Positions 107 to 27,110 of a stretch of 64,000 nucleotides of DNA are shown in pieces; position 1 is the stretch's first letter, and the number at the start of each line of letters is the position of its first letter. Source of the stretch: Candidatus Omnitrophota bacterium (GTDB lineage: Bacteria; Omnitrophota; Gorgyraeia; Zapsychrales; Zapsychraceae); the NCBI GenBank assembly GCA_035292445.1, contig DATDQB010000002.1, forward strand, positions 14,714 through 78,713. Reading direction: 5' to 3'. The translations under genes were made by a program, and so were the position numbers. The notes beneath the pieces are model-generated. The model was given only the letters and a program-made list of their open reading frames with translations, made no database searches and was not told the DNA's origin.

Positions 107-184
107 ATCCTGCACGTTCGCTGCGCTCAGTGTTCTTCGAACAGTCCTGAGCGAAGCGAAGGAAGCGAAGTCGAAGGATTGACT
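107..184 (+). repeat. intergenic repeat module III (GTTCG...TCGAAC...CCTGAGCGAAGCG...GTCGAAGG), copy 1
   Basis: long hairpin TTCGCTGCGCTCAG-tgttcttcgaacagtc-CTGAGCGAAGCGAA; tail similar to 10838-10920. Confidence 0.5.
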
Positions 185-213
185 ATTCAAACCATTTGTG
201 ATAGTTTACCTCA

Positions 214-9542: not shown

Positions 9543-9584
9543 TTGACACATTCGGGCCCCGCTTGGCGGGGCTCTCAGTGTCAA
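9543..9584 (+). repeat. intergenic hairpin repeat, module I (copy A)
   Basis: TTGACAC-aTTCGG-GCCCCGC-ttg-GCGGGGC-TCTCA-GTGTCAA; other copies at 65-106 and 26992-27035 keep the fold by compensatory changes. Confidence 0.7.
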
Positions 9585-9590
9585 CACTGA

Positions 9591-9657
9591 GTATACCTTA
9601 TTGTTTCAAATATTTATTTTTTGAGTTATAAATTAGGGGTATACGAATGTGTTGACA
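9591..9657 (+). repeat. intergenic repeat module II (GTATACC...GGGGTATACGAATGTGTTGACA), copy A
   Basis: inverted GTATACC/GGTATAC arms around a variable loop, ending in a TTGACA -35 box; homolog at 27041-27110. Confidence 0.6.
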
Positions 9658-9680
9658 GTCTTTGGCTTTTCAGATATTAT
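9652..9680 (+). promoter_or_regulatory. sigma70-like promoter TTGACA-N17-TATTAT for mreB, with the -35 box supplied by the intergenic repeat
   Basis: TTGACA 9652-9657, TATTAT 9675-9680. Confidence 0.55.
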
Positions 9681-10837: not shown

Positions 10838-10920
10838 GGTTCGACGCGCTTCGCTTGCTCACCACTAGTCGAACCACCCTGAGCGAGCGTCAGCGAGTCG
10901 AAGGGTCAGTGACAATTATC
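10838..10920 (+). repeat. intergenic repeat module III, copy 2 (between mreB and mreC)
   Basis: GGTTCGAC...GTCGAACC inverted repeat, then CCCTGAGCGAGCGTCAGCGAGTCGAAGGGTCAGTGAC. Confidence 0.5.
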
Positions 10921-21818: not shown

Positions 21819-21849
21819 CTTTTTTGGCCCCTGGCCGCTTGGGGCCGGG

Positions 21850-21879
21850 TTGACAAGGGGCAGGGGGCCGTGGTATACT
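21850..21879 (+). promoter_or_regulatory. sigma70-like promoter TTGACA-N18-TATACT driving the riboswitch RNA
   Basis: TTGACA at 21850-21855, TATACT at 21874-21879; the -35 box sits in a partial copy of the intergenic repeat. Confidence 0.5.
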
Positions 21880-21904
21880 TAGGTTGAAACTTTGACAAGA
21901 AGGA

Positions 21905-22012
21905 TTTATCTGTGAAACAGGGTAAACCATTCGTAAGGATGGGGCACAAAGCTATCCCGACGTCCCCTAAAAGTAGTTTAAGGAAGTCGGGACCCCGACC
22001 GAGTGAAACGAG
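21905..22012 (+). ncRNA. candidate c-di-GMP-I (GEMM) riboswitch aptamer
   Basis: ACAGGGUAAACC-AUUCGUAAGGAUGG-GGCACAAAGC closely parallels V. cholerae Vc2 ACAGGGCAAACC-AUUCGAAAGAGUGG-GACGCAAAGCC; GNRA-capped hairpin CCAUUC-GUAA-GGAUGG; second helix UCCCGAC/GUCGGGA; no credible ORF; lies upstream of a type IV pilin, a known GEMM context. Confidence 0.6.
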
Positions 22013-22068
22013 CGTCGGGGGAGGGCCCAAGCGGGTTAGGCCGCGGGTAGCCAGTTGCCACATAAGGT

Positions 22069-22089
22069 TAAGCTTAAAAAGCTTTTTTT
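22069..22089 (+). terminator. short intrinsic terminator (AAGCTT palindrome hairpin + T7), candidate expression platform of the riboswitch
   Basis: AAGCTT aaa AAGCTT followed by TTTTTTT. Confidence 0.45.
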
Positions 22090-22124
22090 AACCTATTCCT
22101 TACATTCGGAATAGGTTTTTTTGT
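22090..22124 (+). terminator. strong intrinsic terminator
   Basis: AACCTATTCC ttacattc GGAATAGGTT 10-bp stem followed by TTTTTTTGTTTT. Confidence 0.7.
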
Positions 22125-22176
22125 TTTGGAAGATCTTTGAAATTGCAGGCCTCTTTGAAGAAATCTTGAATCGAAA

Positions 22177-22206
22177 TTGACAAGATTAGGAGGTGAATGG
22201 TAGAGT
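22177..22206 (+). promoter_or_regulatory. candidate sigma70 promoter for the pilin gene (TTGACA-N18-TAGAGT)
   Basis: perfect -35, acceptable -10; about 148 nt 5' UTR to ATG 22354. Confidence 0.4.
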
Positions 22207-22353
22207 AAAATCACTTTAATTGTGCACGGGTCAATAGGTTATCATCGTTCGGCGGGATTAAGAATAACACGTTATTATTCATTCTTTACATACTCCTTGC
22301 TGGATGAAAGAAAGCCTGGCGGCCCAAAACCAGTAACAGTAAGGAGAAATAAG

Positions 22354-22749
22354 ATGAAAAGGCTAAAAAATCAAGGTTTTACGCTCGTTGAAATCATGAT
22401 CGTTGTCGCGATCATCGCTCTGTTGGCGGCTATTGCCATCCCCAACTTGTTAAGAGCGAAAATCTCCGCTAACGACGCGTTAGCGCAGAGCACGCTACGT
22501 ACCCTTTCTACGGCATCTGAGACGTTTGCTACCTCAAACAACGGTACGTATCCGGGTGACATCACATCGTTGACAGGCGCCACACCACCGTATATAAATG
22601 AACCATTTTGTACTCAAACTATTTCCGGGTTCGTATATGGTTGTACGATGGCTGCGGGTAGTTATTCGTTTGCCGCTGTCCCCGTTAACGTGGGTGTATC
22701 TGGTACGACAACGTTTACCATGACAACCGGCGGTATTTTAACTCCGTAA
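22354..22749 (+). CDS. pilA: type IVa major pilin (prepilin with N-terminal methylation motif)
   Basis: 131 aa from ATG 22354 with AAGGAG RBS; leader MKRLKNQG|FTLVEIMIVVAIIALLAAIAIP with G-1, F+1, E+5; C-terminal Cys pair; followed by strong terminator. Confidence 0.9.
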   Translation: MKRLKNQGFTLVEIMIVVAIIALLAAIAIPNLLRAKISANDALAQSTLRTLSTASETFATSNNGTYPGDITSLTGATPPYINEPFCTQTISGFVYGCTMAAGSYSFAAVPVNVGVSGTTTFTMTTGGILTP

Positions 22750-22776
22750 ATGTCATTGAGTTGAGCATCATCAGGA

Positions 22777-22803
22777 GGGGGGCTTATAAAGCCCCCCTTT
22801 TTT
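22777..22803 (+). terminator. intrinsic terminator after pilin
   Basis: GGGGGGCTT-ata-AAGCCCCCC followed by TTTTTT. Confidence 0.75.
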
Positions 22804-23063
22804 ATTGATAAAAAGAACTGTTTAAATGTTTCACGGCCAGCTTCGTTGCTTACGAAAGGGTCCCTATGAGAGAACGGTTATTCTTTATATTCATAAAAGT
22901 TTCTTCAGAGGGCTCCTCTTTACTCCTCCTGCCGCAACCGCACTGTTTTCGTTTCAAAGATGGAACAAATGGCCATTTCTATTTTTTTATGAAATACTGC
23001 TTGATGAGAAGGGCATCCTCCAATACTATATATAGAAAGAATAAATATATTTATATTACTTAT

Positions 23064-26991: not shown

Positions 26992-27035
26992 TTGACACGT
27001 TCGGCCCCGCCAACGGGCGGGGCCCTCAGTGTCAA
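26992..27035 (+). repeat. intergenic hairpin repeat, module I (copy B)
   Basis: TTGACAC-gTTCGG-CCCCGCC-aacg-GGCGGGG-CCCTCA-GTGTCAA. Confidence 0.7.
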
Positions 27036-27040
27036 CCCTG

Positions 27041-27110
27041 AGGATACCCTGCGGTCAAAACGTTGAGAATAAGTTTCGATAAGTGTTTGGGGTATACGAA
27101 TGGGTTGACA
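27041..27110 (+). repeat. intergenic repeat module II, copy B
   Basis: GGATACCC...GGGGTATACGAATGGGTTGACA. Confidence 0.6.

Follow-up and report, generated by a model that had tools for sequence, protein, structure and literature searches.

A 64,000-nucleotide stretch of a Candidatus Omnitrophota bacterium genome (contig DATDQB010000002.1, positions 14,714 to 78,713 of the forward strand; hereafter the window) carries three copies of a composite DNA element that, taken as a whole, is best explained as a non-autonomous mobile element inserting at the pentanucleotide TTGAC (a probability of about 0.62). The original prediction concerned three hairpins on the + strand, at 65-106, 9543-9584, and 26992-27035. 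These hairpins are present, fold, and have a TTCG/CTCA internal loop in common, and each is the left unit of a double-hairpin composite of ~115-120 nt. Comparison of orthologous loci with and without the composite shows it to be a discrete insertion at a pre-existing TTGAC: a single TTGAC is found when the site is empty and two, one per end, when it is filled. Here, the architecture of the element, its target sites, and its distribution are described, and mechanisms that could account for its spread are weighed.

Architecture of the composite element

Each composite is ordered TTGAC, hairpin 1, GTCAA, hairpin 2, TTGAC, and can be written in general form as X - s1 - TTCG (tip 1) CTCA - s1' - X' - s2 - TGAG (tip 2) CGAA - s2' - X, where X' (GTCAA) is the complement of X, which is TTGAC in >90% of copies. 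The two hairpins are units of opposite polarity that hold the central X' in common, and the loop of hairpin 2 (TGAG/CGAA) is the reverse complement of that of hairpin 1 (TTCG/CTCA). In hairpin 1, the outer stem leads into an asymmetric internal loop, with TTCG(R) on its 5' side and (Y)CTCA on its 3' side, and then into a GC-rich inner stem; the hairpin is followed in each case by GTCAAYNCTGAG, the start of the second, opposite-polarity unit. Unit 2 runs GTCAA-YNC / TGAG / tip 2 (a few to ~130 nt) / (T)CGAA / GNR-TTGAC, and a second motif in the window, GGGGTATACGAATGNGTTGACA, is its closing arm. The window hairpins fold at -26.6 to -31 kcal/mol (z -4.2 to -5.8 versus dinucleotide shuffles), with equally good folding of the complementary strand. 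The composites of the window, their parts, and one probable relative are as follows.

64-183, + strand: composite copy 1, upstream of yggS
64-68, + strand: left target of copy 1, degenerate ATGAC
65-106, + strand: unit 1 hairpin of copy 1, TGACCC / TTCGA / GGCCCGC-loop-GCGGGCC / TCTCA / GGGTCA; -29.8 kcal/mol, z -5.5
103-107, + strand: central GTCAA of copy 1
103-183, + strand: unit 2 of copy 1, outer stem GTCAATCC/GGATTGAC, with small units nested in its interior
112-135, + strand: degenerate framework unit nested in unit 2 of copy 1, CACGTTCG..CTCAGTG
147-175: degenerate framework unit of reverse-complement type nested in unit 2 of copy 1, TCCTGAG..TCGAAGGA
179-183, + strand: right TTGAC of copy 1
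9543-9656, + strand: composite copy 2, between aroA and mreB
9543-9547, + strand: left TTGAC of copy 2
9543-9584, + strand: unit 1 hairpin of copy 2, TTGACAC / A TTCG / GGCCCCGC-TTG-GCGGGGC / TCTCA / GTGTCAA; -26.6 kcal/mol, z -5.8
9580-9584, + strand: central GTCAA of copy 2, common to units 1 and 2
9579-9657, + strand: unit 2 of copy 2, TGTCAACAC / TGAG / TATACC..38 nt..GGTATA / CGAAT / GTGTTGACA, with a perfect 9-bp outer stem
9652-9656, + strand: right TTGAC of copy 2
26992-27109, + strand: composite copy 3, between a pilQ-like secretin gene and rng
26992-26996, + strand: left TTGAC of copy 3
26992-27035, + strand: unit 1 of copy 3
27031-27035, + strand: central GTCAA of copy 3
27030-27110, + strand: unit 2 of copy 3
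27105-27109, + strand: right TTGAC of copy 3
10839-10912: probable degenerate relative in the mreB-mreC spacer, tentatively assigned, GGTTCGAC..GTCGAACC and then ACCC TGAG CGAGCGTCAGCGAG TCGAA GGGT; weak covariance-model match, E = 1.6

The base changes described between the three hairpins were confirmed: TGACAC/GTGTCA gives way to TGACCC/GGGTCA in the outer stem, and compensated changes distinguish the inner stems. The proposal that these changes reflect selection on structure also holds, given that stems covary around fixed loop bases and that the family extends far beyond three copies. A pattern fitting all three window copies (TGAC N2-3 TTCG N14-30 CTCAG N GTCAA Y N CTG; 21 specified bases) matched the window three times versus 0.00 expected. 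Across 185,579 species-representative genomes (596 Gb), it matched 75 loci versus ~5 expected by chance on our own estimate, rather than only three recent duplicates. An exact reverse complement of GTCAAYNC lies at most 200 nt away in 52 of 78 copies (chance, ~0.3% each) and in 70 of 78 when one mismatch is allowed. TGAG and CGAA, neither of which was imposed by the search pattern, occur in 62 and 64 of 70 copies, respectively. Moreover, a generic unit detector requiring at least five perfect outer pairs around TTCG...CTCA returned 81 + 68 units in 569 kb of loci, whereas 360 kb of viral control DNA gave 0 + 1. Units are also nested within the tips of other units, both in window copy 1 and at three other loci (L085, L111, and L046).

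Covariation among copies identifies which fold has been selected. The free position of the outer stem is paired in 73 of 78 copies and takes all four Watson-Crick types (CG 32, AT 16, GC 12, TA 11); the ~5 non-pairing matches equal the number expected from chance matches. Alternative folds were evaluated with 63 copies in a gap-free framework alignment, bulge-free and of fixed length, which replaced a MAFFT alignment of untrimmed frameworks in which an optional bulge had been misplaced. Under a two-hairpin model, 98.3% of cells are paired and covariation is seen at the variable pairs 6-25, 31-50, and 32-49, each of which has 1/62 unpaired and all pair types present. The loops of units 1 and 2 are reverse complements of each other, and a cloverleaf or REPIN-like fold pairing TTCGA with TCGAA and CTCAG with CTGAG is hence also conceivable on paper; it pairs 92.8% of cells, leaves 18/62 and 29/62 unpaired at variable positions, and is ruled out by covariation. 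Thus, two hairpins are the selected structure, and, because both outer stems use the central GTCAA, they cannot both form fully on one strand.

The invariant bases in the alignment are TTGAC, TTCG, CTCAG, GTCAA, TGAG, and CGAA. Among 70 copies, 66 tip 1 sequences are distinct, as are all tip 2 sequences; only about half of the tips are significantly hairpin-like on their own, and some copies, such as those of Komeilibacteria, are without any inner stem. Folding energy across the element set is equal on both strands, and G-U pairs are modestly commoner on the + strand (216/2414 versus 148/2285; 40 elements to 19). Known copies scored just 9.7-21 bits against a covariance model of the framework owing to the long variable inserts in both tips, and explicit pattern and stem searches were therefore used instead.

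Empty sites, filled sites, and promoters

Three Omnitrophota relatives (L197, L198, and L199) share the gene order yggS...aroA-mreB-mreC, and their syntenic DNA (3 x 21 kb) contains no unit anywhere. The yggS and mreB promoters of the window and of these relatives compare as follows.

yggS promoter, window (179-207, + strand): -35 TTGACT (179-184, element right end), 17-nt spacer, -10 TAGTTT (202-207), ATG at 214; element abuts -35
yggS promoter, L197: -35 TTGACG, N17, -10 TAGTTT; element absent
yggS promoter, L198: -35 TTGACT, N17, -10 TACTTT; element absent
mreB promoter, window (9652-9680, + strand): -35 TTGACA (9652-9657, element right end), 17-nt spacer GTCTTTGGCTTTTCAGA, -10 TATTAT (9675-9680), 11/12 match; element abuts -35
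mreB promoter, L197: -35 TTGACA, spacer CTGCATTTCTTTTCATA, -10 TAATAT; element absent
mreB promoter, L198: -35 TTGACA, spacer GTTTTATGCTTTTCATA, -10 TATCAT; element absent
mreB promoter, L199: -35 TTGACA, spacer GCAGAAACCTTTTTAGT, -10 TAATAT; element absent

The mreB spacers of all three relatives are homologous to that of the window. The element is missing from the pilQ-rng spacers of three relatives, which measure 119, 55, and 163 nt, versus 192 nt in the window, where it is present. These empty orthologous sites indicate that all three window copies are lineage-specific insertions at TTGAC, and for two of them, those at yggS and mreB, the target is demonstrably the -35 box. The mreB-mreC spacer, which holds the probable degenerate relative, is 120 nt long in the window versus 34-82 nt in the three relatives. 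All long open reading frames (ORFs) of the window are on the + strand, with copy 2 beginning 40 nt from the aroA stop codon and copy 3 beginning 10 nt from that of the pilQ-like secretin gene. The best homologs of the window AroA are Omnitrophota proteins with identities of at most 66%.

Empty and filled sites also occur in Nitrospira, where the element sits 5' of a WD40-repeat gene in nine species-level genomes, in each at the orthologous divergent promoter (TTGACT-N18-TACGAT); at this locus, the framework is conserved and the surrounding spacer has diverged. Eighty further Nitrospira loci were collected via the neighboring gene; their promoter is conserved, and 75 loci could be anchored on it. 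These 75 comprised 11 canonical composites, ~48 short empty sites, 7 decayed variants still ending in ...GTCGAAGAG/TTGAC, and ~9 loci with an unrelated palindromic insert farther upstream. Both alleles are found in one sublineage that is identical from -35 to -10 and in downstream sequence. Its empty alleles read ...GGAGCCGGC/TTGAC/TTGGCCGCGAGG... (L137, L138, L143, L150, and L151) and its filled alleles ...GGAGCCGGC/TTGAC/GCTTCGAC...GTCGAAGGG/TTGAC/TTGGCCGCGAGG... (L136, L142, and L158), while L163 has retained unit 2 alone. The left TTGAC is free to decay, as seen in ATGAC of window copy 1 and in TTGGC of L136 and L158, where the right copy is intact.

A second, unrelated palindromic insert of ~140 nt (GGATGCTCAAAAAGGCCGTCCAGCAAGGCCGC...GCGGCCTTTTTCAGCATCC) was observed in another Nitrospira sublineage (L170, L171, L177, L179, L181, L195, and L196), ~150-250 nt 5' of the WD40-gene start and just upstream of the same -35 box. 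The promoter region of the WD40 gene is a recurrent landing site for small elements.

Across the family, the target TTGAC usually serves a sigma-70-type promoter as its -35 box. An A or T comes directly after the right-hand TTGAC in 52 of 70 cases, and a match to TATAAT of at least 4/6 lies 16-18 nt 3' of it in 44 of 69 copies versus 24% of 619 other TTGAC(A/T) sites in the same loci; for matches of at least 5/6 at this distance the counts are 18/69 and 53/619. Window copy 3 has no convincing -10 box 3' of its right TTGAC. Because the right-hand TTGAC and the -10 box are the proper 16-18 nt apart, the promoter survives, and the element in effect rebuilds the -35 box at its own right end. Since it lies directly 5' of the promoter and supplies the -35 hexamer, the element falls outside the leader of the downstream mRNA. 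The original prediction had placed the hairpins in leader or promoter regions of yggS, mreB, and rng; their position at promoters was given correctly, but the reason for it is insertion at a -35 TTGAC and not a leader function.

Gene contexts, assigned with a crude ORF-based gene caller, are tandem with the TTGAC end toward the downstream gene start in 26 cases and away from it in 7, divergent in 21, and convergent in 7. The downstream genes are unrelated housekeeping genes (rplU, rpsQ, truA, dnaB, typA, fabF, lexA, pgk, birA, infC, smc, rsmH, ribBA, and others), and a regulon or operator was rejected on this ground. A role as intrinsic terminator was likewise rejected given the lack of a T-run (unit 1 is followed by CTCAGNGTCAAYNCTGAG), the absence of the hairpins from a terminator scan, and the divergent contexts; ordinary terminators are used elsewhere in this organism (e.g., at 22773-22807).

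At six loci (L060, L071, L076, L084, L098, and L105), the upstream ORF called by the crude ORF finder stops exactly at the TGA within the left TTGAC, such that the target or the element may supply the upstream stop codon. In the Omnitrophota metagenome-assembled genome (MAG) LacPavin_0419_WC90, a composite in reverse orientation (L062, 4458-4539) lies in frame within a DinB (DNA polymerase IV) ORF that remains unbroken, with the peptide ...ALLSVDPERSRRVNE... at the composite. Relative to solved DinB structures, this protein appears to have ~14 extra residues at the composite, in an alignment that is not clean. A second composite at this locus lies 5' of the adjoining lexA-like gene.

Distribution and competing explanations

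Judged by record titles, hosts of the family include Candidatus Omnitrophota, Nitrospira and other Nitrospirota, Syntrophaceae, Desulfobacteraceae, and other Deltaproteobacteria-type lineages, and Planctomycetales. Further hosts are Solibacteraceae, Gammaproteobacteria, and groups of the candidate phyla radiation (CPR), namely Komeili-, Wildermuth-, Adler-, and Curtissbacteria and Parcubacteria. A 2-kb contig binned as Candidatus Woesearchaeota (L088) carries the Omnitrophota subtype, with a GCGACCCCG inner stem and TATACC...GGTATA in unit 2, and probably reflects the mis-binning of bacterial DNA and not a presence in archaea. The family pattern had no match in 5,426 genomes of Escherichia coli and none in 2.9 million viral contigs (IMG/VR); a looser pattern gave 36 chance matches in the viral collection, none with the hairpin, and a phage vector was rejected. 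At gathering score, Rfam matched nothing in the window but two tRNAs, and under E-value thresholds it gave just chance-level microRNA or small-RNA hairpin matches at the elements. No description of the family was found in Rfam 15 or in the full-text literature searched by sequence strings and topics.

Smaller forms of the unit were also observed, the smallest being without the inner hairpin. In Komeilibacteria, minimal single units directly adjoin tRNA genes (L054, 5376-5400; L082, 6950-6974), one consisting of a stem and a 13-14 nt loop TTCGACAAGCTCA and the other having the loop TTCGATTTCACTCA, and one lying 3' of a tRNA end and the other 5' of a tRNA. In plasmid collections, the only matches were short ones to the minimal unit, in Sphingomonad megaplasmids. 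On plasmid pSA1 of Novosphingobium resinovorum (L116, 1427-1521), the degenerate minimal units GGC TTCGACAAGCTCA GCC TGAGC... and CACCC TGAGCTTGTCGAA GGGT sit in an unannotated intergenic stretch of this cultured alphaproteobacterium. The basic unit may thus be far more widespread than the TTGAC-type composite.

Two other structured stretches were observed in the window. The spacer 3' of yggS (904-969) contains a short tandem TAAGCAGTAAGCGGTAAGCAGTAAG followed by a hairpin, GGGAACGGTC-TCCC-GACCGTTCC, without a T-run. Within a 403-nt spacer (21819-22221), positions 21912-22063 match the c-di-GMP-I-GGC riboswitch aptamer RF03167 below threshold (28.7 bits versus a gathering score of 59; E = 8e-5 for a 461-nt stretch). 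This stretch lies 3' of a strong promoter-like TTGACA...TATACT and 5' of an ORF at 22222-22749, and may be a divergent riboswitch of the c-di-GMP-I (GEMM-I) class with a long insert.

How the composite might find its target is suggested by its central pentamer. A strict scan of 948 kb of collected loci yielded 56 composites, 52 of them with TTGAC/GTCAA; the remaining four carry TTACG, CGAC, CTGAG, or CTGCG, and in each the center complements both flanks. A looser scan returned no composite class with a non-complementary center. As the center complements the flanks and one flank pre-exists, the simplest reading is that the center determines, or must pair with, the target. A trans-acting enzyme may recognize the folded hairpins through the fixed internal-loop bases and stem geometry, which would account for covarying stems, free tips, and one framework across phyla. 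By analogy with IS608, in which a guide base-pairs with the cleavage and target site (PMC3201880) and has permitted experimental retargeting (PMC5934647), the central X' could select or pair with the target X on single-stranded DNA in a guide-like manner. The effect on the host would be near neutral, with the former upstream sequence pushed ~60-190 nt from the -35 box and strong hairpins placed between the upstream gene and the promoter. A bolder version, which is possible but which we hold to be doubtful, would make the element a minimal DNA transposon that moves as a single strand and is naturally reprogrammable. The central 5-mer would then be a DNA guide with the -35 core TTGAC as its default target, and the TTCG/CTCA loops would be the handle for a widely distributed enzyme of the HUH or tyrosine-recombinase type or for a universal host enzyme, such that one framework could colonize promoters across phyla, including the small-genome CPR, while leaving them intact.

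Several observations weigh against a mobile element. No transposase or recombinase and no recurrent Pfam family was found among 139 neighboring ORFs on fragments of 8-21 kb, in a summary that rare families would escape, nor was an autonomous copy seen. Within a genome, copies have only the framework in common, in contrast to recently amplified miniature inverted-repeat transposable elements (MITEs), and one strand presents the two hairpins in opposite polarity, unlike IS200/IS605 elements, in which both ends are read on the same strand. There is no significant bias relative to local GC skew (33:25; a weak test), and the location of 3/3 window copies on the G-rich strand is confounded by gene orientation. 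The retention of the element at one Nitrospira locus in at least nine species-level genomes could mean host function and not mere persistence. In principle, an 'empty' site could also reflect precise deletion rather than insertion, although the phylogenetic spread of empty sites argues against this.

The likeliest rival is a classical double-strand MITE moved by a DDE transposase, with terminal inverted repeats CC(N)TTCGAC...GTCGAA(N)GG, a 5-bp target-site duplication that is TTGAC by chance, and hairpins that arise only as a side effect of internal palindromy. The insert does end in mutual inverted repeats (TTCGRC / GYCGAA), a 5-bp direct repeat that is single in empty sites flanks it, and strand bias is lacking. 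A staggered-cut duplication nevertheless leaves the complementarity of the central 5-mer unexplained, including in the four copies with other 5-mers, and no insertion in reversed orientation was seen. Furthermore, only the loop bases are conserved in sequence while stems covary and tips are free, which points to recognition of structure and not to the binding of double-stranded inverted repeats, and we consider this explanation improbable.

Two further rivals are less probable again. A host-selected DNA module upstream of promoters, acting as a supercoil-sensitive cruciform that sequesters the -35 box or as a hairpin insulator or terminator before housekeeping promoters, with mobility as its mode of spread, would be in keeping with the apparent purifying selection on the framework at the Nitrospira promoter in nine species with diverging flanks. 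It would also suit the tandem contexts, in which the element often begins a few nt after the upstream stop codon, and the -35 box lies within the outer stem of unit 2, with the left TTGAC competing for the same GTCAA. Yet most relatives operate the same promoters without the element, the downstream genes have no functional theme, copy 3 is without a recognizable -10 box, and the hairpins resemble the ordinary terminators of this organism neither in a T-run nor in the terminator scan. Such a module seems quite unlikely; with so many empty promoters functional, a selfish, near-neutral element is the better default. A structured RNA on the + strand, whether a cis-regulatory leader, a 3'-end stabilizer or terminator, or a small RNA, had been offered in the original prediction beside a REP/BIME-like DNA element. 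Covarying stems, the modest + strand excess of G-U pairs, and the location of several copies just 3' of stop codons are compatible with RNA. This part of the prediction is nonetheless unsupported, and we give it very little credence: the element lies 5' of the -35 box and hence outside the downstream mRNA, 21 copies lie between divergent genes, every element contains both unit polarities with equal folding energy on the two strands, and Rfam yields no match at gathering or E-value thresholds. Presence and absence at orthologous loci with identical genes and promoters, including the very promoters at which the window copies lie, argue for a non-autonomous insertion element and not a 5' leader RNA. 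The element is a structured DNA repeat, and the REP/BIME-like half of the prediction was close to the truth.

If a mobile element is correct, the family represents tiny mobile elements that cross phyla and target the -35 core while sparing the promoter, a combination that we did not find described. This raises the questions of how selfish DNA persists in compact genomes without cost, how upstream promoter elements are displaced or insulated, and whether target choice can be reprogrammed by a 5-nt DNA guide as for IS608. For annotation, the elements lengthen intergenic regions, can supply stop codons (TGA within TTGAC), and can sit in frame inside genes, as in the DinB case above; they probably also underlie many spurious 'hypothetical protein' calls in MAGs.

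Comparison with known systems

Among known systems, REP/BIME sequences and the REPINs mobilized by REP-associated tyrosine transposases (RAYTs) offer an evident parallel (PMC3116915; PMC3337134). Like them, the element is a short, extragenic, imperfect palindrome that is repeated, that forms inverted unit pairs and mosaic or nested clusters (as at 64-183 of the window), and that is non-autonomous and persists for long periods at given loci, probably with handling of a folded single strand. It differs in lacking the GTAG/GTGG head and in units that do not pair into one long REPIN hairpin (the 18/62 and 29/62 unpaired versus 1/62 given above). Its copies within a genome share a framework rather than near-identical sequence, and it has a defined target, TTGAC, with a flanking 5-mer that complements the center. 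Moreover, its single framework occurs in many phyla, whereas REPIN-RAYT systems are described as mostly inherited vertically within lineages (bioRxiv 10.1101/2022.05.22.493013).

Elements of the IS200/IS605 family transpose as single strands by a 'peel and paste' process catalyzed by the Y1 transposase TnpA (PMC3201880; PMC5027513; PMC5934647). Likenesses include hairpins with unpaired bases as the recognition structure, insertion beside a specific tetra- or pentanucleotide that flanks the left end with a similar sequence at the right end, and a short internal sequence complementary to the cleavage or target site. The single TTGAC of empty sites and the pair of filled sites fit this scheme, although a 5-bp target-site duplication fits equally. 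GTCAA 5' of unit 2 complements the right TTGAC and covaries with it in the four copies with other 5-mers, as a guide would, but the geometry at the left end is unlike that of IS608. The target of ISDra2, TTGAT, is one base off TTGAC. Further differences are that one central 5-mer of the element complements both ends and merely extends the hairpin stems, that its hairpins present TTCG/CTCA and TGAG/CGAA on the same strand rather than a single polarity, and that neither tnpA/tnpB nearby nor a strand bias was seen.

Integron attC sites resemble the element in having an outer stem, an unpaired internal spacer, an inner stem, and a variable terminal structure of widely varying length, and in the conservation of structure rather than sequence. 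The core is found on both sides after insertion with its inverse inside (X...X'...X), and R''/R' pairing in attC follows a logic like that of center-target pairing in the composite. The attC box consensus is RYYYAAC / GTTRRRY, with which GTCAAC / GTTGAC of the element share just AAC/GTT. Further, the element is solitary in housekeeping promoter regions, without a cassette ORF, array, or adjacent integrase.

Correia elements of Neisseria and other promoter-bearing MITEs are likewise ~100-150 nt, intergenic, and hairpin-forming, with ends that can supply promoter hexamers. Correia elements have 26-bp terminal inverted repeats, duplicate TA, and are confined to one genus; in the family described here, TTGAC is duplicated or regenerated, hairpin tips are free, and the range spans phyla. 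The element departs from REP/REPIN sequences, IS200/IS605 ends, attC sites, and intrinsic terminators in defining features of each.

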